The notes under the pieces were generated by a model. It was not told the origin of the DNA, ran no database searches, and saw only the letters and a program-made list of their open reading frames with translations. A stretch of DNA of 64,000 bases from Candidatus Bathyarchaeota archaeon (GTDB lineage Archaea > Thermoproteota > Bathyarchaeia > Bathyarchaeales > Bathycorpusculaceae), in NCBI GenBank assembly GCA_963815095.1, contig CAWFFH010000006.1:96001-160000 (forward strand), in the 5' to 3' direction. Positions 31,585 to 42,394 of the stretch are shown here, one piece after another (position 1 is the stretch's first letter; each line of letters begins with the position of its first letter). Position numbers and translations under genes: made by a program.

Positions 31585-32955
31585 ATGTCGGAACATTCAG
31601 ATGGAAATACCAAACTGAAGGCACTCAAGATTTCAGCTGTTGCAATATTTAGTGTCGTATTGGTTGAGGTTACAGTTGGTTTCTTGGTTAACAGTTTAGC
31701 GATAATGAGTGACGGCTTACACGCGTTATTGGATGCTGTCTCGAGCCTCATGTTGTTTTTCGCTGTCCGCGCCTCACTCAAACCAGCTGATGAAGAACAC
31801 ACTTACGGTCACGAAAAGTTTGAGACTATAGGAGGATTAATCGGCGGCATAGTATTAATTGTAGTAGCATTCATAATTTTCTACGAAGCTGCATTACGCC
31901 TAATAAGCCCCCCGCAACTTGCTATAGGGATAGAGTATGCAGGTTTCATTGCCATAGGCTACGCACTCTTCATTGCTTCCCTTAGAGTAACTGTTTTCAA
32001 GAAGTTCCAGCACATTCAAAGCACATCAATGAAAGCAGGCTTTTATGACGCTATTTCAGATTTAAGTTCAACTTTACTTGCCCTTGTAGGTTTTGGCTTA
32101 GCCATATTGGGTTTTACAGGCGGAGACGCTTTTGCATCTATTTTCTTAGGAGTAATGCTGACTTACTTGAGTCTTAAACTGGTGAAGGTCAGCGTTATGG
32201 AACTTAGCGACACCGCTTCAAAAGAGCTTATTGAAAAAACTAGAAAAATAATTCTTTCCTGCGAGGATGTGGTTAAAACGGAGAACCTTAAAGTTCGCAA
32301 AGTTAGTTCAAAAGTTTTCATAGATGCGTCAGTTCAGGTTCCAAGTCTTATGAGTTTGGAAGACGCACATTCCTTAGCCTCAAAGATTGAAGCCTGCTTA
32401 AAAGGCGCCTTTGGAAATGTGGATGCAACTATTCATATTGAACCCTCTGATAAAGAACGAAAAATGGACCAACTAGTCGAGAAGTTGGCCTCGGTTGATG
32501 GCGTAAAAGAAATCCACGAAATCTCAACCATTTACGTCGGCGGCAAACTGTACATCACTTTACATGCTTACGTTAACCCTGAAATGTCTGTGGAAGAAGC
32601 CCATAGAATCGCTGAAACCATTGAGGGAAGCATGCAAGCTGAGATTAAATCTCTTGAAAACGTTACTGTTCATGTTGAACCAGCAGGAGTTGCTATTCCA
32701 GCCGCGGAAGTTAATGAAGTTCAACTAAGAAAAGTCGTAAATGAAGTAGCCAAAAATATTCTGGGTAGCTTGCGCATTAAACGAGTCTTAACTTATGCTT
32801 CGGGAGGCAAACGGTACATTAACATTGACTGCTATTTCACCAAGCAGATTCAGATAAAGGAAGCTCATAGGATAGCATCACAAATTGAGAAGGAAACTAA
32901 AGAGTACTTTGCGAACGCTGTGGTTACGGTTCATATTGAGCCTGAGAGCCCCTAA
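31585..32955 (+). CDS. Cation diffusion facilitator with three tandem C-terminal dimerisation domains
   Basis: SDGLHALLD, HTYGHEKFE; AHxxAxxIE...xHxEP repeated three times. Confidence 0.9.
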   Translation: MSEHSDGNTKLKALKISAVAIFSVVLVEVTVGFLVNSLAIMSDGLHALLDAVSSLMLFFAVRASLKPADEEHTYGHEKFETIGGLIGGIVLIVVAFIIFYEAALRLISPPQLAIGIEYAGFIAIGYALFIASLRVTVFKKFQHIQSTSMKAGFYDAISDLSSTLLALVGFGLAILGFTGGDAFASIFLGVMLTYLSLKLVKVSVMELSDTASKELIEKTRKIILSCEDVVKTENLKVRKVSSKVFIDASVQVPSLMSLEDAHSLASKIEACLKGAFGNVDATIHIEPSDKERKMDQLVEKLASVDGVKEIHEISTIYVGGKLYITLHAYVNPEMSVEEAHRIAETIEGSMQAEIKSLENVTVHVEPAGVAIPAAEVNEVQLRKVVNEVAKNILGSLRIKRVLTYASGGKRYINIDCYFTKQIQIKEAHRIASQIEKETKEYFANAVVTVHIEPESP

Positions 32956-33113: not shown

Positions 33114-33863
33114 TTATTTAGTTTTGCGTCGGTATGCGTATGTTCCGAAGGCAATTGCAACTAATGCTAAAGCTACGACTATTGTTGCTATGCTTGAAAA
33201 TTCGGGAACTGTTGGTGTTGGTTCAGTTGTACCTTCGGGGGTAAATACTGCTTGGTAGCTGTAGGTGCTTCCGTAGCCGTGGTTAACGTTGTAGGGATTG
33301 TCTGTTGGTGTTGCTGTGAAGGGGTATCCGCCGTGGCTTAGGTTGGGTCCTGAAATAACCCAGTGTGAGAATACCCAACCGCTCGCGGGCGTAGCTGTCA
33401 GTTCAAGCGCTGATGCATCCTCTAAAGCATAAGTTCCTGGCACTGGACTTGTTGTTCCTCCTGCAGATGTTAAGACTATTACGATTGCAGCTGTGGCAAA
33501 ATTAGTGACCGGAACACCATTTGGGGGTACCTGTATTGGAACAAAGTTTGCTTGCACAGTATAGGTGACGCCTCCGCTCACGGGGATTGTGATTGAAGCA
33601 TCTGTGGCAGTGTTGGCGCCTTGATCAATGGAAAAGATCCAATCTTGGAATACGTAGCCTGTGTCAGGTGTTGCAGTAAATGTAACTGATGTGCCATCAT
33701 CATAGGTGTGAGTTCCTGCCGCTGGATCTGTTGATCCTCCGACAGTGTCCACCATGATTACGGTAGCTTGGGTTTGAGCGCTTAGAACACTAACGTTTAG
33801 CGCTGCAAGGAGTAATAGCGAGGTTATGAAAGTCAAAGCAAATATTTTTTTAGATTTCATCAT
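33114..33863 (-). CDS. Surface protein with two divergent InlB-B-type repeats and a PEF-CTERM sorting signal
   Basis: Signal peptide; GGSTDP..TATPDTGYVFQDW and GGTTSP..TATPASGWVFSHW; C-terminal VPEF + TM + RRKTK. Confidence 0.8.
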   Translation of the reverse strand: MMKSKKIFALTFITSLLLLAALNVSVLSAQTQATVIMVDTVGGSTDPAAGTHTYDDGTSVTFTATPDTGYVFQDWIFSIDQGANTATDASITIPVSGGVTYTVQANFVPIQVPPNGVPVTNFATAAIVIVLTSAGGTTSPVPGTYALEDASALELTATPASGWVFSHWVISGPNLSHGGYPFTATPTDNPYNVNHGYGSTYSYQAVFTPEGTTEPTPTVPEFSSIATIVVALALVAIAFGTYAYRRKTK

Positions 33864-34117: not shown

Positions 34118-36346
34118 ATGTTATCTCGTTCAGCAATAGTTAAACTGAAAGCAATTCTGATAATTGACTTAATTATTATTGGCGTGGCTGCAGGAGCCTA
34201 TGTTTATCTTCAAGAACAAGGCGCCCTTGGAAGCGCCACTAAAGCCGCCAAGTTCACCTTAACTGATTTATCTATCTCTCCATCTGAAGCTTTCGTAGGT
34301 CAAGCAGTTCAAATTTCAGTTAACTTAACCAACATTGGCGATTTAGAAGGCAACCAAGCAGTAAACCTTGAAGTTAATAATGCTGTTAAAGATTCGACGA
34401 ATGTAACTCTTGCAGGTAACTCGACACAAATTGTCGAGTTTACCGATATTGAAATGGTGGCAGGAAACTATAGTGTTACAGTCGGGGATTTAACGGGAGC
34501 ATTTCTCATTAAAGATGCCCCGCCAGATTCCAGCAAAATTTTACTCTCAAATTTTATAAGCACACCCTACGAAGTTTGGGCATATGACAATGTCACTTTT
34601 TCTGCCATCGCCCAGAATCCATCAAATAAACCCGACAGCTTAACAATTAAAGTAACGGTTGATAACGTATTCGTAGGAATACTGGTTATTTCTCTAAATG
34701 CCGGAGAAACTCAAACTGTACAATATTCAATTAACGCATCCAACGCAGCAGAAGGAAAACATACAGCAGCACTAAACACGCTCTCTGGTTCATTTTATGT
34801 GGTTAAGACAGGATACCACACACTCATAATCAACCGCTCAGGAGGAGGCTCCACCCCGTTACCATTCACAATAAACGGCCAAAAAGAACAAACCGTTTAC
34901 CAAGCGCTACTGCCTATAGGAACATACACCGTTACTGTGCCTGACCCATTCAGTGTCGGAACAGGAGTGCTAGCCTTTACTTCTTGGAACGACGGCAGTA
35001 CAAATCCAACAAAAACTTTCACGTTAAGCAACCGTCAATTACTTGTTGTAACTTATACGTTAGTAAGCGGATACGCGTCCTGTCCTTCACTGTTCATGTG
35101 GAATGGAACAGGCTATTCTTATGTAACTGACGTTTCAAACCCAGGCTGGCTTGGATACATCGGCTACATGAATGAAGACGGCGGCATTGTAAATAGCGGA
35201 GGAAACCCCTGGGACTATATAAAACTCAACAATAACCTGATCGCTACAAACAATGATAACTTTGACATGACTTTGACTCAGCAATGGGACGAACTATTCT
35301 ATTTAGATTCAGCTTACATGCTGGTTGTTGACCACCCGGCAGGAACCAACGCATACACCTCGATGACAAACTACCTCAACAAAGGTTCAACAGGCCAAAT
35401 TTATACCGTAAGCAACAGTACCCTACTATCGCCTATCAGCGCCACAAACGAAAAAGGTCAAAATGTTCTGTCTCAAATCATAAAACAAGATGGAATTTAC
35501 ACGCCAGGAATAAATGGAGATGACAGCAAATCGTGGAACAACATAACCCAAAACCAATTAACTTTAGATTTAGGCAATTTATCTGCCGCTCCAGCCACAA
35601 AACTTGTAATTACGGGAATGGTCGATTGGGGCTCAGCCGACGCGTATTATGCTTGGATAAACGATTTCAAAGAAGCGGCTGCACAAGGACTTGTTCCCAA
35701 CGGCACGCAAATTACTCCCCCACCCACCATGGAAATTAAAGATGCAAACGGCAACTGGGTTAGCGTTCCACAAAGCAGTGAGGTACCTTTGCCCTCAGAT
35801 TATAATGCTCGAACTTTCATCGTCGACCTATCAGGACTTTTCCCGGCTGACGTGAAGAGTTACCAAGTTAGAATCACCAACTTCTGGAACGTTACATACG
35901 ATTACATAGGAATAGATACAACGCCACAACAAACCACAACAATTCAGAAACTAACACCTACTTCAGCAAATCTCAGCCAAATCTGGGACACCAACTCTTC
36001 ATCTTCAGGAGCTTTCACTCGATACGGCGACGTAACACCATTAATGCAAAGTGCGGATGACATGTTTGTGATTGGACGACAAGGTGACACTGTTAACATG
36101 CAATTCTCAACCGCCAACTTGAAAGCTCCTACACCAGGTATGGTGAGAGACTACTTCTTTGTGGTAGCATGCTGGTTTAAAGACCCCCCAAGCGCATGGG
36201 GATACGGATTCAACTTCACAGTAAACCCAATGCCTTTCATGGCTATGAGTGGATTCCCTTACCCAACAACTGAGAGCTATCCATACGTCGCAGTAAACTT
36301 AGCCTACATCCAACAATACAACACTCGAATAATACCTGCCCCATAG
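34118..36346 (+). CDS. Large cell-surface protein: class-III-like signal peptide, two CARDB/Ig-like domains, C-terminal SCP-motif beta domain
   Basis: MLSRSA/IVKLKAILIIDLIII; ISVNLTNIGDLEG; ASCPSLFMWNG, ELFYLD, FTRYGDV, GWFKD-like CWFKD, PMPFMAMSGFPY. Confidence 0.75.
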   Translation: MLSRSAIVKLKAILIIDLIIIGVAAGAYVYLQEQGALGSATKAAKFTLTDLSISPSEAFVGQAVQISVNLTNIGDLEGNQAVNLEVNNAVKDSTNVTLAGNSTQIVEFTDIEMVAGNYSVTVGDLTGAFLIKDAPPDSSKILLSNFISTPYEVWAYDNVTFSAIAQNPSNKPDSLTIKVTVDNVFVGILVISLNAGETQTVQYSINASNAAEGKHTAALNTLSGSFYVVKTGYHTLIINRSGGGSTPLPFTINGQKEQTVYQALLPIGTYTVTVPDPFSVGTGVLAFTSWNDGSTNPTKTFTLSNRQLLVVTYTLVSGYASCPSLFMWNGTGYSYVTDVSNPGWLGYIGYMNEDGGIVNSGGNPWDYIKLNNNLIATNNDNFDMTLTQQWDELFYLDSAYMLVVDHPAGTNAYTSMTNYLNKGSTGQIYTVSNSTLLSPISATNEKGQNVLSQIIKQDGIYTPGINGDDSKSWNNITQNQLTLDLGNLSAAPATKLVITGMVDWGSADAYYAWINDFKEAAAQGLVPNGTQITPPPTMEIKDANGNWVSVPQSSEVPLPSDYNARTFIVDLSGLFPADVKSYQVRITNFWNVTYDYIGIDTTPQQTTTIQKLTPTSANLSQIWDTNSSSSGAFTRYGDVTPLMQSADDMFVIGRQGDTVNMQFSTANLKAPTPGMVRDYFFVVACWFKDPPSAWGYGFNFTVNPMPFMAMSGFPYPTTESYPYVAVNLAYIQQYNTRIIPAP

Positions 36347-36473
36347 TTCTCCCCTTTTCTTTTTTTTAAAAAACAGCTAAAAACAGAAAAACAAATACAA
36401 ATGCGAAATTTATGTAAGATTTAAAAGGTTTCAACCTGTTACTTGCTTTAATAACTTCCAAAGAGACTATGGC

Positions 36474-37172
36474 ATGTCGTTGACACCTGAAATCCCAAAT
36501 CCATACGTAGGCTCATTTATCATAGGACTAATTTATGGATTAGGGGTTTGCACCGCCTCCTGCCTGCCATATATATCAGCCTACATTGCAGGAACTGGCG
36601 CAGGTTTTAAAAAAGGAATTAAAATTACTTTAATTTTTAATTCTGGAAGAATAATAGCATATGCTTTGATTGGTGCATTAATCGGGATGTTAAGTGGACT
36701 GGTGACTTTGCTAGCGCCTAACGCTTTGTCGCCCTTTCAAGTTTATTCTGCGTTGATATTTGGAGCAATAACAATAGCAATTGGCGCAAGTATTCTCTTG
36801 AAAACAAGAAAACCATACGAATGTAATATCAAAGGCACAAATGTTGCGGCATCTGGGAAAAAAAGGCGCTTCGGATTTGATTTTGGCGCCTTCACACTTG
36901 GTCTAAGTAGAGGATTAATCATCTGCCCACCCCTTGTTTCTCTGCTCTTAGTCTATGCATTACCGTTCTCCAACCCTGTAGGAAGTATGACTTTGGCTGT
37001 CCTCTTTGGATTAGGAACCGTAATCTCGCCCTTGTTAGTGCTTGGCGGAGTTACAGGTTGGTTACTAAACAAGGCGCCGCTATTTCGCAAATGGATCTCA
37101 CTATCAGGAGGCGGAATACTAATACTACTTGGAGTAATTACTATCGTTAATTCCGTAATTCAACCAAGATAA
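36474..37172 (+). CDS. CcdA/DsbD_2-like (TauE/SafE-annotated) membrane protein
   Basis: GVCTASCLPY, FNSGRIIAYALIG, IICPP, LFGLGT; six TM helices. Confidence 0.8.
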   Translation: MSLTPEIPNPYVGSFIIGLIYGLGVCTASCLPYISAYIAGTGAGFKKGIKITLIFNSGRIIAYALIGALIGMLSGLVTLLAPNALSPFQVYSALIFGAITIAIGASILLKTRKPYECNIKGTNVAASGKKRRFGFDFGAFTLGLSRGLIICPPLVSLLLVYALPFSNPVGSMTLAVLFGLGTVISPLLVLGGVTGWLLNKAPLFRKWISLSGGGILILLGVITIVNSVIQPR

Positions 37173-37191
37173 TTCTATAGGTGGGAAAAAA

Positions 37192-38217
37192 ATGGGTTTG
37201 GAACTACTTGGAGACCTATTAAGGCTCATGGTGCTTGCGGGACTTGGGGTAGCAGGGATTCTGAGTATTTTGATTTGGAAGAAAAACCTATCCACACGGG
37301 TAACTTTTCTCAGGTTTGTTATCCAAGCAGTTTCTTTTGCAGCAATATTCTATGTGCTTTCTTATACAATTCCGCCTGCGTCTGGAGGATTGCCACCCAT
37401 TGAGTTTCTTTACGTACTAGTTATAGTGTTGTCTATGACTCTTTTTTTGGGCAGGATTTTCTGCGGATGGTTATGTCCCTTCGCCCTTATAATGGACATA
37501 GAAAGCCTCGTTAGAAAAGCCCTCAAAATACCCTACCGAATAATCCCCAACAAACTAAACAAAATGCTCCATCAATCACGATACATCATATTGTTATTTT
37601 TCTTGCTAATGCCGGTATTGTTATGGTTTCTGAATCCCCAGCCAATCATGGTTTCGCCATTGATGGCTCAACTTTTAGCAGGTCATTTCCGACCCTACAG
37701 CATACTGCTTGACCCGTTAATTCCTTTTCTTGTCCCATGGAAAGGACAGCTTATTATAAACCAGGTTAACTTAACTTATCCTTATGCTTTGGACTTCATT
37801 ACTTATGTAGGCGCAAACATTGGGCAAGTAATAGCCATAGTGTTTGTTGGGTTAACGTTGGTGGGATCTTTTTTGTTTAGGCGTGTCTGGTGCCGTTTCT
37901 GTCCAACAGGCGCTTCATTGGCTGTTGTGAACAGGTTTAAGGGTTTTAAGTGGGCACCACTGCTTCATATTGACAAAGACGAAGAAAAATGCACCAAGTG
38001 CGGCGTGTGCAAACGCGTTTGCCCAGTACAAGTTAATGAAGTTTATGAGCAAAAGGGCGGAAAAATCAAAACCTCCCAATGCATGCTCTGTGTAAGATGC
38101 GTGGAAATGTGCCCATACGAGGAAACACTAAAAGTAAAGTTGGGTAGCAAGACCGTATTTAAATCAAGAAACTGGTTAGAACAACCTAAGAGTGAAAGAG
38201 GAAGAGAGAATGACTGA
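37192..38217 (+). CDS. NapH/MauN-like membrane 4Fe-4S protein
   Basis: GRIFCGWLCP, RVWCRFCP, C-terminal CTKCGVCKRVCP and CMLCVRCVEMCP. Confidence 0.88.
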   Translation: MGLELLGDLLRLMVLAGLGVAGILSILIWKKNLSTRVTFLRFVIQAVSFAAIFYVLSYTIPPASGGLPPIEFLYVLVIVLSMTLFLGRIFCGWLCPFALIMDIESLVRKALKIPYRIIPNKLNKMLHQSRYIILLFFLLMPVLLWFLNPQPIMVSPLMAQLLAGHFRPYSILLDPLIPFLVPWKGQLIINQVNLTYPYALDFITYVGANIGQVIAIVFVGLTLVGSFLFRRVWCRFCPTGASLAVVNRFKGFKWAPLLHIDKDEEKCTKCGVCKRVCPVQVNEVYEQKGGKIKTSQCMLCVRCVEMCPYEETLKVKLGSKTVFKSRNWLEQPKSERGREND

Positions 38218-39541
38218 CGAAACCGTTGGAAAAAGATACATGCCTGATATATCCCGAAAAGAAATTGATGAACTCAAAAGCACTATGAAAGCAGCATCTC
38301 AAAAAGTAATAGCTGATAACATCGAACGCATGAAAAAAGCCGATCCACATAGACCTGAAGCGATGAGTTACTTTGACGAAATCTCAAACCTGTTTGGTAG
38401 ACGCCAAGAGGAAATTGCGGCAGAGAAAGAAAAAGGCAAGAAAGTTATCGGTTACATGTGCCTCTTCGCTCCCACAGAGTTGATTCTAGCTGCCGACGCC
38501 ATCCCGGTTAGGGTTAACTCAGGTTGGTATGACACATCCAAACTCGGCGACAGAGTTGTGCCTGTAGAGGTCTGCCCAGTTATCCGCTCAACCATCGGAG
38601 CAAAAATGATTGAACTTTCGCCGTTTCTTGAACAGAGCGATGCACTTATTAGCGTTTTAACCTGCGATGGCATGACTAAACTCAGCGAAATCCTCAGCGA
38701 TTACAAAACAATTTGGGGAATGAACGTTCCTCGAATAAAGGATTCCACGCAGTCGTTGCATTTCTGGAATGATGAAATAAAACAAATGAAAGCTCAGATT
38801 GAACAGTTCACAGGCAACAAAATTACTCGCAAGAACCTAAAAGAAGCTATCGAAACAACCCACAGGGCGACCAAAGCTTTCCGACGCTTACAAGAACTGC
38901 GCAAAGGCTCACCTGTAATTATGGGTAGAGATGCCATGTTGGTTAACCAAACCTTCCTGTGGGATGATAAGAAGCGATGGACCGAGAAAACTGAGGCTTT
39001 ATGCAATGAGCTTGAAGCGAGGGCGCAACGGAAAGATTGGGTTTCCCCTCCGGACACTCCAAGAGTCATGATTACTGGCACGCCGATGTTTTGGCCTGAC
39101 AGTTGGAAATTGCCTACGTTGGTTGAGGAAAGTAATCCTCGGGGCGTTATCGTTGCAGACGAATTATGTTCAGGCGAGAGAATACTAAACGACCCCGTCG
39201 GCGTTGACGAATGGTCAATGGATGACATGTTAAATGCCATCGGCGAACGCTATTTGATGGCTTCCACATGCCCTTGCTTTACAAGCAAAGACGGGAACGA
39301 GGACCGTGTCAATTGGCTTCTAAATAAAGTCAAGGACTGGAACGTTCAAGGCGTAATTTATTATGTGGTCAGGGGTTGCATGCTCTATGCCATGGAATAC
39401 ACTCGAGTTAAAAAAGCACTCGACAAAATCAATGTACCAGTTTACTACCTTGACACTGAATACACACGCGAAGACGTTGGACAAATGAAGACCCGTGTAG
39501 AAGCGTTTCTTGAAATGTTAACCGCGAGGTTGGACTTCTAA
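38210..39541 (+). CDS. 2-hydroxyacyl-CoA dehydratase-family reductase, double-cubane-cluster (DCCP) type
   Basis: GYMC-x37-C-x29-C(DG) and ELC...TCPCF...RGC cysteine sets in one chain; C-terminal GQMKTRVEAFLEM. Confidence 0.8.
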   Translation: MTDETVGKRYMPDISRKEIDELKSTMKAASQKVIADNIERMKKADPHRPEAMSYFDEISNLFGRRQEEIAAEKEKGKKVIGYMCLFAPTELILAADAIPVRVNSGWYDTSKLGDRVVPVEVCPVIRSTIGAKMIELSPFLEQSDALISVLTCDGMTKLSEILSDYKTIWGMNVPRIKDSTQSLHFWNDEIKQMKAQIEQFTGNKITRKNLKEAIETTHRATKAFRRLQELRKGSPVIMGRDAMLVNQTFLWDDKKRWTEKTEALCNELEARAQRKDWVSPPDTPRVMITGTPMFWPDSWKLPTLVEESNPRGVIVADELCSGERILNDPVGVDEWSMDDMLNAIGERYLMASTCPCFTSKDGNEDRVNWLLNKVKDWNVQGVIYYVVRGCMLYAMEYTRVKKALDKINVPVYYLDTEYTREDVGQMKTRVEAFLEMLTARLDF

Positions 39542-39543
39542 AA

Positions 39544-40329
39544 ATGATAACTGTTGGAATGGATTTGGGCACTCAAAGAGTGCAAGTTGTAGTCGTTAAA
39601 GACGGCACAGCAGTAGCCAGAGCTTGGGCTTTTTCAGGGTTTGACCCAACCAAAGCCGCTGAACAAGCTGTAGAGGAAGCCCTAAAACAAGCGAACCTAA
39701 AACTCTCCGAAGTTAACCACTTCGCAGCTACAGGCTCTGCCACTGACATGGCGCCATACGCCTTCAGCAAAGTCAGCATGATGAGTGCCGACGCAAAAGC
39801 AGGCATCTTCCTTGTCCCTAAAGCGCGAACAATCATCGATGTGGGTGCGGAGGAAGCAAGAGCTGTAAAATGCGACGAAAAAGGAATCATGGTGGATTTT
39901 GTCGTTAACGAACGCTGCGCTGCTGGCGCGGGAGCTTTCATAGAAGCTATGGCGAGAGCGCTTGAAGTTAAAACCGAAGAAATGGGTCTATTATCACTTA
40001 AGGCAGAGCGAGCGAGCCCCATAAACGCTTCATGCGTAATCTTTGGCGAATCCGATGTGGTTTCACTTATTCATCGTCAAGAATCCAAACCCGAAATCGC
40101 ACGAGCAGTATATGACGCGATGGCTGACCGAGTCTCATCCATGATCCACCGCTTAGGAATCAACCCCGAAGTGATACTTGTAGGCGGCGTCGCCAAAGAC
40201 CCGGGGTTTGTTGCATCGCTAAACCGCAAACTAGGTTTAACTGTCACGATTCCAGAATACCCAGAATACGTTGGGGCACTAGGCGCGGCGTTGATAGCCG
40301 CAACGCGCGCAAAGGAGCCACAGAAATGA
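39544..40329 (+). CDS. ASKHA ATP-dependent electron-transfer activator, BzdP/BadG-like
   Basis: GMDLG, IIDVGAEE, NERCAAGAG, CVIFGES. Confidence 0.88.
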   Translation: MITVGMDLGTQRVQVVVVKDGTAVARAWAFSGFDPTKAAEQAVEEALKQANLKLSEVNHFAATGSATDMAPYAFSKVSMMSADAKAGIFLVPKARTIIDVGAEEARAVKCDEKGIMVDFVVNERCAAGAGAFIEAMARALEVKTEEMGLLSLKAERASPINASCVIFGESDVVSLIHRQESKPEIARAVYDAMADRVSSMIHRLGINPEVILVGGVAKDPGFVASLNRKLGLTVTIPEYPEYVGALGAALIAATRAKEPQK

Positions 40330-41228
40330 ACCAGCCAAAAGAGACAGAATTCTGGCGTTGGCAAGAATACCACCGCATAATGCCCAACAAGAAATGGACA
40401 AACAAAGACATAATCACTGCAGGCGTAGATGTTGGCTCAGTTGGTTCCAAAGCTGCCATCATGGTTAATGGTGAAGCGTACAGTTGGGGCATTACCCGCA
40501 CAGGCTCTAACAGCCCTGAAAGCGCCACCAAAGCCCTCAACTACGCATTGGAAGGTACAGGACTGAAAGCAAGTGACCTCAAATACATCGTCGGCACAGG
40601 CTACGGACGTGTCAACGTACCTATGGCAAACAAAGCCATAACCGAAATCGCCTGCCACGCAAAAGGTGCCAACTACATCTGGGGAACCAGCGTCAGAACC
40701 GTCCTAGACGTTGGTGGACAAGACATCAAAGCCATCCGAATAGATGAAACAGGCAGAGTTGTCTCCTTCTTAATGAACGACAAATGCGCCGCTGGAACAG
40801 GCAGAGGAATGGAAGTTTTTGCTGATTTATTGCAGATTCCCATCGAACAAATAGGCGATATTTCCCTCAAAGTGGAAAAAGAACCAGAACCAGTAAGCTG
40901 CACTTGTGTTGCTTTCGCAAAAACTGAAGCCATGGGCTTACTGCGCAAAGGCTGGACAAGAGAAAAAGTTTTGGCCGCATATACAAGGGCAATGGCTGTA
41001 CGCATGGCCAATTTAATTAACAGAGTAGGCTTGGAACTGGAACTAGTCGTCACCGGCGGACAATCCAAAAACAAAGGTATTGTTACCCGAATCGAAACCA
41101 TCCTTGGGATAAAAACGCTTCCGACTCCCAAGTGGCGCGAAGAAGGCAGCTTAGACCCCATGGTTGCAGGCGCATTAGGCGCTGCTTTACTTGCCAAAGC
41201 CCTCTACGAGAAAGCACAGAAGACATAG
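40326..41228 (+). CDS. ASKHA ATP-dependent activator, BzdQ-like (benzoyl-CoA reductase-type subunit)
   Basis: N-terminal EFWRW extension, AGVDVGSV, RTGSNSPESA, TEIACHAKGA, NDKCAAGTG, CVAFAKTE. Confidence 0.88.
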   Translation: MNQPKETEFWRWQEYHRIMPNKKWTNKDIITAGVDVGSVGSKAAIMVNGEAYSWGITRTGSNSPESATKALNYALEGTGLKASDLKYIVGTGYGRVNVPMANKAITEIACHAKGANYIWGTSVRTVLDVGGQDIKAIRIDETGRVVSFLMNDKCAAGTGRGMEVFADLLQIPIEQIGDISLKVEKEPEPVSCTCVAFAKTEAMGLLRKGWTREKVLAAYTRAMAVRMANLINRVGLELELVVTGGQSKNKGIVTRIETILGIKTLPTPKWREEGSLDPMVAGALGAALLAKALYEKAQKT

Positions 41229-41236
41229 GTGAAAGT

Positions 41237-41524
41237 TTGATTACGCATTACGGCTATATCGACGGTTCTGGCGAATACTTCATAGTAATTGACTCCAACA
41301 AATGCAGCGGCTGCGGTAAATGCGTTCAAAAATGCCCCCAAACTGCCCTTCAAATTGAGACCGAATTTATTGATCTTGAAGACAAAGTGGTGGCGTCAAT
41401 AGTGGAAGGGCACCGAAAAAAAATAAAGTACACTTGTACACCCTGCAAACCCGAAGGCAACAGTACGCCATGCGTGGTCGCATGTGAATCTGGAGCAATC
41501 AGGTGCATTTGGAATCCGTTATGA
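41237..41524 (+). CDS. Ferredoxin of the type found with Bzd-like reductase clusters
   Basis: TTG start after an AGGTGA RBS; YGYIDGSGEYFIVID, CSGCGKCVQKCP, HRKKIKYTCTPCKP...PCVVAC. Confidence 0.85.
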   Translation: MITHYGYIDGSGEYFIVIDSNKCSGCGKCVQKCPQTALQIETEFIDLEDKVVASIVEGHRKKIKYTCTPCKPEGNSTPCVVACESGAIRCIWNPL

Positions 41525-41812: not shown

Positions 41813-42394
41813 TTGTCAGACAGAGGGGTAGAAAAATTGGCCAAGAATCCACAATCAAAAGATGATGCTTTAGAGGCTTTAGATTTCATAGTAAATGTTC
41901 TCAAAGAGCACGAGAAAGACTTAGATAAACTAATCAATGAGTTGACAATCGTCACAGAACAAATAGGTGACACCGGGGAATTAAGCAGCAAAGTTGAGAA
42001 TATAGAGGAAAAAATAGATACTCTTCAAAAAGAAGTAACAAACTTAATCGGTCACATATCCAGCGTTCCCAGAGAAGCATCACCAACAACATTAGCATCC
42101 GAAAAAAACGAAACTATACCTGCGGCAACGGCAGCATTGCAGGGGGCACCATCAGTAGTTTTTCGTTGCAGACAATGGGAGGACTTCCAAGCATTAGCTA
42201 ATAAAGCTCAAACATTGTCTTTCAGTTATAAAGAAGAAGAGAAGGTTTTCCAAGCTGATGCACTTAAGGGAAACCAAATCATTATCTACAGTGGTGCACT
42301 TCCAAAGTTTTCTTCCATACTCAAAACATGGCTGTCTAAACAGCTCGATGTTCCCGAACGAAGTATTATGGAAGGCGTTTTAGCAGTAAGCTAA
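41813..42394 (+). CDS. Hypothetical protein with N-terminal coiled coil
   Basis: Heptad pattern over about residues 20-82, then a low-complexity linker and an alpha/beta C-terminal domain; AGGTG RBS. Confidence 0.75.
   Translation: MSDRGVEKLAKNPQSKDDALEALDFIVNVLKEHEKDLDKLINELTIVTEQIGDTGELSSKVENIEEKIDTLQKEVTNLIGHISSVPREASPTTLASEKNETIPAATAALQGAPSVVFRCRQWEDFQALANKAQTLSFSYKEEEKVFQADALKGNQIIIYSGALPKFSSILKTWLSKQLDVPERSIMEGVLAVS

Follow-up and report, generated by a model that had tools for sequence, protein, structure and literature searches.

We analysed a stretch of 64,000 nucleotides from the genome of a Candidatus Bathyarchaeota archaeon (assembly GCA_963815095.1, contig CAWFFH010000006.1, positions 96,001 to 160,000; hereafter the window), in which seven open reading frames (ORFs), g1 to g7, lie co-oriented on the + strand at positions 34118-41524. 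Six of them, g2-g7, probably encode an ATP-driven, very-low-potential reductase of the double-cubane cluster protein (DCCP) kind at the cytoplasmic face of the membrane, a reading to which we assign a probability of about 0.6. All statements below on the function of g2-g7 are inferred. The source genome comprises 2.69 Mb and is 98.45% complete, and the nearest public relatives of the window all carry the label Bathyarchaeota or Bathyarchaeia. The features of the cluster are as follows.

g1, 34118..36346, + strand: surface-type protein of 742 amino acids with an N-terminal hydrophobic anchor and CARDB (Pfam, 26.7 bits)
T-run, 36347-36367, + strand: T-rich stretch of 21 nucleotides directly 3' of the g1 stop codon, resembling an archaeal terminator
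TTTAAAA box, 36420-36426, + strand: TATA-like element 48 nucleotides 5' of the g2 ATG
g2, 36474..37172, + strand: polytopic membrane protein, DsbD_2 (PF13386, 80.6 bits)
g3, 37192..38217, + strand: NapH/NosR-like membrane iron-sulphur protein, Fer4_5 (54.1 bits) plus a 2x[4Fe-4S] domain
g4, 38210..39541, + strand: protein of 443 amino acids, HGD-D (PF06050, 317.7 bits), DCCP homologue of clade II (see below)
g5, 39544..40329, + strand: ASKHA ATPase A of a BzdP-like lineage, BcrAD_BadFG (152.3 bits)
g6, 40326..41228, + strand: ASKHA ATPase B of the BzdQ lineage, BcrAD_BadFG family
g7, 41237..41524, + strand: 2x[4Fe-4S] ferredoxin of 95 amino acids, Pfam Fer4 families

A preliminary description of this DNA, made from the sequence alone, had listed seven co-oriented genes with these domains, and every detail of it that we checked against ORF calls and Pfam and NCBIfam searches was accurate. 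It had also placed the last six genes at most 19 bp apart or overlapping, which holds with the likely starts: g2 and g3 are 19 nucleotides apart, g3 and g4 overlap by 8, g4 and g5 are 2 apart, g5 and g6 overlap by 4, and g6 and g7 are 8 apart. The likely start of g4 is the ATG at 38210, which that description had also given, in an ORF that opens with GTG at 38192. The g7 ORF opens at 41132, and its likely start is the TTG at 41237, since this lies a few bases past a GGTGA that follows the g6 stop codon and yields a protein of 95 amino acids, close to the 94 of an orthologue described below. The g1-g2 gap, read from the sequence, is 127 nucleotides long and holds the T-run and the TTTAAAA box, which may serve as terminator and promoter signals. 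Because of the tight spacing and of these two elements after g1, g2-g7 (36474-41524) look like a single operon, and g1 is probably a transcription unit of its own and a loosely associated, frequent neighbour.

The reductase g4 resembles double-cubane cluster proteins

The preliminary description had proposed that g4 is a single DCCP-like reductase and not a BzdN or BzdO subunit, and the profile, fold and phylogenetic evidence agree in supporting this. The NCBIfam double_cubane model (NF040772, corresponding to cluster IV of IPR010327) is by far the best-scoring model for g4 at 341.5 bits, compared with 97.2 bits for BzdN and 31.8 bits for BzdO (cut-offs of about 450). Against proteins of the PDB, g4 scores 268 bits with the Carboxydothermus DCCP and 87 bits with BzdN. 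The AlphaFold2 model of g4 (mean predicted local distance difference test score, pLDDT, 91.7) has as its top Foldseek match the DCCP structure 6ENO (template-modelling scores 0.88/0.92, E = 3.1e-30, 34% identity), with the folds of BzdN and HadC (0.76/0.89) behind it.

The preliminary description had also read two sets of three Cys residues in g4, and both are there, as C90-x37-C128-x29-C158 and as C326 (ELC), C360/C362 (CPC) and C396 (RGC). The six likely ligands (C90, C128, C158, C326, C360 and C396, in ORF numbering) align with conserved Cys residues of 7YYL/6ENO, are invariant in a 20-sequence family alignment, and are kept in 18/18 rows of clade I and 29-30/30 rows of clade II of the tree described below. 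An [8Fe-9S] cluster is thus predicted for g4 from its ligand pattern. The DCCP motif comprises seven Cys residues, including the six [8Fe-9S] ligands, and the seventh (Cys94 in the solved enzyme) lies next to an opening over the cluster (PMC7317905, excerpt).

The genome holds a single HGD-D gene, g4, and g5 and g6 are its only BcrAD ATPase genes, so that no BzdO-like or HadB-like partner is hidden elsewhere; such a partner subunit had been named in the preliminary description as a finding that would speak against its proposal. A 2-hydroxyacyl-CoA dehydratase was ruled out on the same single HGD-D gene and on scores far below the cut-offs (HadC 98.9 against 700, HadB 29 against 750).

The closest characterised system is therefore the DCCP/DCCP-R pair of Carboxydothermus hydrogenoformans (6ENO, 7YYL), with which g4 shares the fold, the six ligand Cys residues and the arrangement of a single catalytic gene beside genes for ASKHA electron-transfer ATPases. 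Unlike that DCCP, g4 lies in a different branch of the family and lacks the seventh Cys, its operon g2-g7 includes a ferredoxin and membrane partners of its own, and two different ATPases of Bzd ancestry replace the one homodimeric activator. In the Bzd-type complexes (BzdNOPQ, 8S02; MbdONPQ, 9GAI), BzdN shares the [8Fe-9S]-type Cys pattern with g4; unlike these systems, both the operon and the genome are devoid of a BzdO-type catalytic subunit and of a BzdN orthologue, and the operon includes membrane partners.

A separate branch of DCCPs

The HGD-D phylogeny comprised 56 proteins from fetched loci and was computed as a quick IQ-TREE run, with Shimodaira-Hasegawa-like approximate likelihood-ratio (SH-aLRT) values as its only support. 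Its rows were g4 with 13 of 52 Bathyarchaeial orthologues picked for spread, all non-Bathyarchaeial matches of at least 300 amino acids, five paralogues from the same genus, and the BzdN and BzdO of locus L042, an archaeal Bzd-type cluster, plus related rows. As the preliminary description had anticipated, g4 groups with DCCPs, which divide into two supported clades, I (97, 18 rows) and II (99, 30 rows), and BzdN-like proteins lie outside both. Clade I is made up of proteins from Bacillota and Desulfobacterota and of a second DCCP paralogue found in some genomes of the same genus; scores of 500-588 bits between its members and the solved DCCP place the characterised enzyme in this clade. Clade II holds g4 and proteins of other Bathyarchaeia, Hecatellales, Thermoplasmatota, Woese- and Pacearchaeota, Omnitrophota, Calditrichota, Desulfovibrionales and Gallionellaceae, with scores of 240-268 bits to 6ENO. 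The seventh Cys is present in 18/18 rows of clade I vs 11/30 rows of clade II. By this phylogeny, g4 appears to belong to a separate, uncharacterised branch of DCCPs.

The clade I paralogue of the same genus was seen at five loci (L035-L039, in genomes G013, G007, G001, G019 and G014). It is 36-39% identical to g4 and scores 500 bits to the solved DCCP. No gene for an ATPase lies within 8 kb of it, and it could rely on the g5/g6 pair encoded elsewhere. It is absent from the window's own genome, where g4 is the one HGD-D gene. In a further genome of the same genus (G022:C7:85200-86519), in-frame stops break the g4 orthologue into several pieces, which probably reflects a pseudogene or an error of assembly. 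A reading of TGA codons in the orthologues of G007 and G023 as selenocysteine was rejected because these codons sit 5' of the real start. One locus titled as that of a Limnocylindrales bacterium (L067) carries a 73%-identical cluster of Bathyarchaeial type and is probably mis-binned.

Membrane proteins beside the reductase

Gene neighbourhoods were compared in 79 loci, one genome per species, found with a 7-sequence alignment; 52 of them hold a Bathyarchaeial orthologue with an identity of at least 60% and 27 are other loci. Presence was counted only where the flank reaches far enough, and the counts include related genomes and are not independent trials. Among Bathyarchaeial loci with enough flank, the genes were found beside the reductase as follows.

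ATPase A: 51/51
ATPase B: 46/46
Ferredoxin: 44/44
NapH-like protein: 42/49
DsbD_2 protein: 31/49
NapH-like or DsbD_2 protein: 46/49
NapH-like and DsbD_2 proteins both: 27/49
CARDB protein upstream: 28/42

The seven-gene arrangement recurs far beyond chance. The gene set is present in 23/24 genomes of the genus and in at least 120 metagenome clusters, all of them at least 82% identical among the matches listed. Outside the Bathyarchaeial loci, a NapH-like gene adjoins the DCCP gene in 11 of the 14 remaining clade II loci, and upstream sequence is lacking in two of the three loci without one; this adjacency spans at least seven phyla. At clade I loci, a co-oriented NapH-like gene occurs in 0/13 (one locus, L117, has a weak match on the opposite strand), and the clade I paralogue loci of the same genus have none either (0/5). 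DsbD_2 recurs in four non-Bathyarchaeial clade II loci, and a Bathyarchaeum locus (L080) has the same order DsbD_2-NapH-DCCP-A-B-ferredoxin. Because the raw counts include related genomes, the real argument for a membrane link is recurrence in at least seven phyla.

The preliminary description had asked whether the membrane genes are conserved with the reductase gene, and on these figures they mostly are. Its proposal of a membrane electron conduit fared well in the conservation of the NapH-like gene and in the complex model described below, but both membrane genes are dispensable in some relatives. Likewise, the hybrid that it proposed does appear to be linked to membrane proteins, but the link is not special to the hybrid: to judge from the loci compared, it turns out to be a trait of the whole undescribed DCCP branch across many phyla and not of this operon alone. 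As for g1, which had been put forward as an extracellular component, its own terminator- and promoter-like signals and its presence in no more than 28/42 loci weaken the idea. Coupling of the reductase to the NapH-like protein is supported by synteny and by the complex model, coupling to DsbD_2 is moderately supported, and coupling to g1 is weakly supported.

The NapH-like protein g3 carries CxxxCP (C91, C95) and CxxCP (C234, C237) motifs and two ferredoxin motifs (C267-C277 and C297-C307), and all 12 Cys residues are present in 53/53 orthologues. With NapH/NosR/PceC-type proteins it shares Fer4_5 motifs of the CxxxCP type and a polytopic part followed by a cytoplasmic 2x[4Fe-4S] domain. It differs from them in several ways: its scores are far below the cut-offs (NapH/MauN 82 bits against 213, NosR 54 bits against 1000), it has no domain for binding flavin mononucleotide, no Nap or Nos partner genes lie near it in the window stretches scanned, and its predicted partner is a cytoplasmic DCCP. 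Outside the window, the same genome encodes two NapH-like paralogues that share 42% (G000:C6:50300-51103) and 37% (G000:C5:104911-105822) identity with g3; the open frames that contain them are 544 and 420 amino acids long, respectively. Among relatives in which g3 does not adjoin the reductase, G016 and G005 have a g3 orthologue elsewhere in the genome, and G007 and G017 have distant paralogues only.

The other membrane protein, g2, is the only DsbD_2 protein of the genome. It has the Cys pattern C26-x3-C30-x-P32 and C151-P-P, and C26, C30 and C151 are found in 34/34 orthologues, 4 of them non-Bathyarchaeial. It shares a PF13386 match and conserved membrane Cys residues with DsbD/CcdA and other DsbD_2 (LysE-superfamily) proteins; CcdA has a two-Cys pattern, compared with the three invariant Cys residues (CxxxC plus C-P) of g2. 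No thioredoxin-like gene is adjacent to g2 in the window stretches scanned (a genome-wide search was not made). The clusters of look-alike proteins bear conflicting automatic names, such as TauE/SafE-like, UreH-like and cytochrome c biogenesis protein. We take g2 to be either a thiol-based transmembrane conduit or a transporter of thiophilic species and, from its distribution among relatives, apparently a frequent but dispensable partner.

A predicted contact between g3 and g4

Complex modelling, which the preliminary description had suggested, predicts docking of g4 with g3. The pair was modelled from 32-row alignments of co-located pairs in three runs and with three controls. The complex score was 0.65 (runs 0.64-0.66), compared with 0.00 for the best of the three controls; a mark of 0.65 is reached by 58/80 solved complexes and by 2/110 mismatched pairs. 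At least 95% of contacts are common to the runs, and the pLDDT of the partner is at least 63. In the model, the first ferredoxin motif of g3 (264-276, plus 306-308; C267-C277) touches g4 at 328-375 (numbered on the 443-amino-acid form), a stretch that lies beside ligands C326 and C360 (ORF numbering). The contact residues R231, P335, D339, E340 and W341 are kept in 13-15 of 18 thinned clade II rows and are all different in clade I. Conservation of the interface in clade II (0.54) is close to that of the rest of the protein (0.59), and in clade I (0.54) it falls well below the background (0.72). The complex model thus supports binding of g3 to g4 without showing it.

In the DCCP:DCCP-R structure, the ATPase cluster sits beside N111 (PMC9351452, excerpt), which our alignment puts two residues N-terminal of the Cys equivalent to C128 of g4. 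Since N111 is near C128 and the modelled g3 contact is near C326/C360, the ATPase and NapH-like sites need not clash, and the two proteins could sit at opposite cubanes.

A motor related to that of benzoyl-CoA reductases

The two ATPases, g5 and g6, are about 30% identical to each other and both belong to BcrAD_BadFG. On the BzdQ model (TIGR03192), g6 scores 367.4 bits (cut-off 380.2), and it scores 188.9 bits against MbdQ of the PDB. Both proteins retain two cluster Cys residues (C125 and C164 in g5, C154 and C194 in g6) and the ASKHA glycine and aspartate motifs (50/50 family rows), and the two are predicted to form a heterodimer. The ferredoxin g7 has the Cys patterns CxxCxxCxxxCP and CxxCx8CxxxC.

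The origin of this module was traced with L042 (G030:C24:18589-35674), a complete-looking archaeal Bzd-type cluster from another family of the same order. It encodes a BzdN (441.8 bits, cut-off 453.8), a BzdO (547.7 bits, above the cut-off), a BzdQ (376.6 bits), a P-like ATPase, a ferredoxin of 94 amino acids, an enoyl-CoA hydratase, a Had-like dehydrogenase and an NAD(P)H/iron-sulphur oxidoreductase of 834 amino acids, and a tyrosine recombinase gene lies nearby. Its P-like ATPase is 50% identical to g5, its BzdQ 62% to g6 and its ferredoxin 56% to g7. In a tree of 51 ATPases (again a quick IQ-TREE run with SH-aLRT support only), the P-like gene of L042 branches as the sister of the g5 clade with a support of 99, and the BzdQ of L042 as the sister of the g6 clade with a support of 100; the single activators that adjoin other clade II DCCPs group apart from both. 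These relationships are in line with the preliminary description, which had called the two ATPases BzdP/Q-type, and the reductase and ATPase phylogenies together support its hybrid of a DCCP unit and a BzdPQ-like motor. The ATPase pair and ferredoxin of g5-g7 are of the same lineage as those of the Bzd-type systems, which supports the suggestion that the two-ATPase motor and its ferredoxin were borrowed from a benzoyl-CoA reductase. Known DCCPs are defined by one homodimeric ASKHA activator, but two different ATPases were found here in 46/46 loci.

Two clade II DCCP loci of Thermoplasmatota (L104 903-4983 and L101 6823-9473) also have two ATPase genes, of lineages other than BzdP/Q. As the second ATPase type there is of a different lineage, two-ATPase DCCP systems appear to have arisen more than once.

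Proposed mechanism and alternatives

On the reading that we prefer, the g7 ferredoxin would reduce the [4Fe-4S] cluster bridging the g5/g6 ATPase heterodimer, and ATP hydrolysis would push an electron into the g4 cubane held by C90/C128/C158. The second cubane (C326/C360/C396) would face the cytoplasmic 2x[4Fe-4S] domain of g3, on which g4 would dock, and g2 could act as an accessory that handles reducing equivalents or a thiophilic substrate. The DCCP would carry out the final catalytic step, and the membrane protein would hold it in place and might supply it with electrons as well. Its substrate would not be an aryl-CoA but most likely something small or inorganic, possibly metal-linked, that is met at the membrane.

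Excerpts of three papers call the physiological role of DCCPs unknown (PMC7317905, PMC9351452, PMC11971306), and a DCCP branch tied to a membrane iron-sulphur protein across many phyla offers a concrete, testable handle on it. The cluster also indicates that ATPase-ferredoxin modules switch catalytic partners within the superfamily of benzoyl-CoA reductases, 2-hydroxyacyl-CoA dehydratases and DCCPs. Our literature search gave no match for a DCCP assignment in Bathyarchaeia or for the NapH link; supplements and many journals lay outside its coverage, and the result is not proof of absence. It returned a paper on the activation of methyl-coenzyme M reductase and a selenoprotein preprint.

Several observations weigh against the reading that we prefer. 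The g4 score falls just short of the NCBIfam double-cubane cut-off (341.5 vs 350), and the protein is without the seventh Cys of the DCCP motif, with Asn109 in that column. The calibration of the 0.65 complex score holds only roughly, as our own alignments were used, and the conservation of the interface was checked after the model had been seen. Among Bathyarchaeial loci, the NapH-like gene is absent from 7/49 and DsbD_2 from 18/49, and neither was seen in 3. A genome that is 100% complete (G007) lacks a close orthologue of g3 altogether, the nearest match being 44% identical, which means that neither membrane protein is strictly required. Finally, the genes that surround the cluster gave no substrate clue in the window stretches scanned.

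The alternatives can be considered in order of their likelihood. First, the double cubane of g4 could be an electron store or relay instead of a catalyst, feeding g3, which, perhaps with DsbD_2, would reduce a target inside the membrane or on its far side (a metal centre or chelate, for instance); we regard this as unlikely, though worth entertaining. The [8Fe-9S] cluster of BzdN is described as a transfer and storage cofactor (PMC11971306, excerpt), NapH-like proteins are described as transmembrane conduits for extracytosolic enzymes (PMC8238504, excerpt), and the docking model puts a g3 cluster motif next to the second cubane. In addition, the seventh Cys, next to the opening over the cluster, varies in clade II, the bacterial clade II loci lie among genes for TonB receptors, TonB/ExbBD, SCO1/SenC, NosL and DUF4198-type proteins, and the archaeal loci are found with surface proteins. 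These points are set against the absence of g3 from some genomes that retain g4-g7 and against the fact that a ferredoxin donor and an ATPase already make a complete DCCP system. Moreover, no extracytoplasmic redox partner is conserved across lineages, g1 has no recognisable redox domain, and sequence does not tell in which direction the electrons move. In its widest form, which we hold to be a tentative and rather doubtful proposition, the clade II DCCPs would be the cytoplasmic head of a membrane machine in which ATP drives electrons through the [8Fe-9S] cluster into the NapH-like protein, with DsbD_2 assisting, at potentials below that of ferredoxin and toward a target in or beyond the membrane. 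The Bathyarchaeia would then have rebuilt the drive of this machine with a BzdPQ-type motor. If this holds, the machine would be an ATP-driven transmembrane reductase of low potential, a type not yet described, and DCCPs would gain a first physiological setting.

Second, the membrane genes could be conserved neighbours with no functional tie, and g4-g7 a soluble DCCP system. That some relatives do without g2 and some without g3 would suit this idea, and the complex test was passed by 7/44 blindly picked neighbours in the tool's own test. However, adjacency of the NapH-like gene goes with clade II in at least seven phyla and does not occur in clade I, and the reading frames of g3 and g4 overlap by 8 nucleotides. 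The complex score of 0.65 vs 0.00, together with the clade-specific surface patch at the modelled contact, also points away from it, and we consider a purely soluble system improbable.

Finally, a true aryl-CoA reductase in which a homodimeric DCCP-like subunit replaces BzdNO seems very improbable. In its favour, orthologues of g5-g7 occur in L042, a genuine Bzd cluster from a related archaeon, and public annotation and some papers on Bathyarchaeia call such genes benzoyl-CoA reductase. Against it, g4 groups with DCCPs and not with BzdN and keeps both cubane Cys sets; in BzdO, a sub-cluster is lost and its space is taken up by the benzoyl ring (PMC11971306, excerpt). Moreover, the genome is without a BzdO-like gene, a crotonase-family match or a ligase above cut-off, and benzoate inhibits a cultured relative (PMC10477458, excerpt).

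Aryl-CoA pathway, selenium and metal context

The preliminary description had noted that no CoA ligase or dienoyl-CoA pathway genes adjoin the cluster, and searches for Oah, Dch and a benzoate-CoA ligase turned up none elsewhere in the genome either. Profiles for Oah and Dch gave no match at E<=0.001 in the genome; the same profiles match in 11/14 control genomes, via ordinary crotonases. No crotonase-family match was found in the genome, and the best score for a benzoate-CoA ligase was 250.4 bits against a cut-off of 375.25, with generic AMP-ligases only. Unlike Bzd systems, the genome thus yielded no dienoyl-CoA pathway by Oah and Dch (Had was not searched). For the cultured Bathyarchaeum tardum, 'BcrACD' without BcrB, no aromatic ligases and inhibition of growth by benzoate are reported (PMC10477458, excerpt). 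Public names for g4-type proteins are of the kind benzoyl-CoA reductase/2-hydroxyglutaryl-CoA dehydratase subunit or BcrC/BadD/HgdB. The preliminary description had foreseen such labels (bcr or hgd), and the excerpted wording 'BcrACD without BcrB' is a case in point. A benzoyl-CoA reductase label on so common a gene set can feed wrong claims of anaerobic aromatic-ring reduction by Bathyarchaeia, an abundant sediment lineage.

A selenium link was dropped as a leading idea for clade II, since the genome is without SelD: no match was above the cut-off, and the best reached 85.8 bits vs 125. In a preprint by Haft and Gwadz (excerpt), 955/970 high-scoring DCCPs are in SelD genomes, and a tie between selenium and DCCPs is also found in PMC5322559 (excerpt).

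Bacterial members of clade II are found in a different setting. The loci of a Desulfovibrionales (L115 5690-10634) and a Gallionellaceae (L118 5746-10668) genome each encode, in this order, a protein that we could not assign, a NapH-like protein, the DCCP, one ATPase and DsbD_2. The first of these proteins has 391-412 amino acids and a C-terminal anchor, and the two are related (E = 2e-14). The flanks hold genes for a TonB-dependent receptor, TonB/ExbBD, SCO1/SenC, DUF4198, an ECF sigma factor and an RND pump, and a Calditrichaceae locus (L109) adds NosL and a MacB-type ABC system. This context hints at metal handling. A kinship of g1 with the bacterial upstream proteins was rejected for lack of similarity (best E 2.4). 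Surface proteins occur at archaeal clade II loci, with CARDB here and beta-propeller or Ig-like domains in Thermoplasmatota, and no extra partner is conserved across the clade II lineages in the loci compared.

Surroundings of the cluster

No redox domain was recognisable in g1 by Pfam scan or by an atlas search with its C-terminal part, whose matches there are unnamed clusters only. Just upstream of the cluster lie genes for a CDF cation-efflux protein with three ZT_dimer stretches (31585-32955) and, on the opposite strand, for a protein with divergent InlB B-repeats (33114-33863); neither is linked to the cluster by any evidence found. The wider surroundings in the window encode an acetyl-CoA synthetase-type ligase, a P-type ATPase, an AspRS-type tRNA synthetase, a TrmB regulator, MFS, CDF and ABC-2 transporters, an HMGL-like enzyme and RNase P p30. 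Downstream, at 41813-42394, lies the gene for a coiled-coil-like protein of 193 amino acids with no family match above any cut-off. Many relatives also have it 3' of the cluster, at distances that vary (22 ORF matches).

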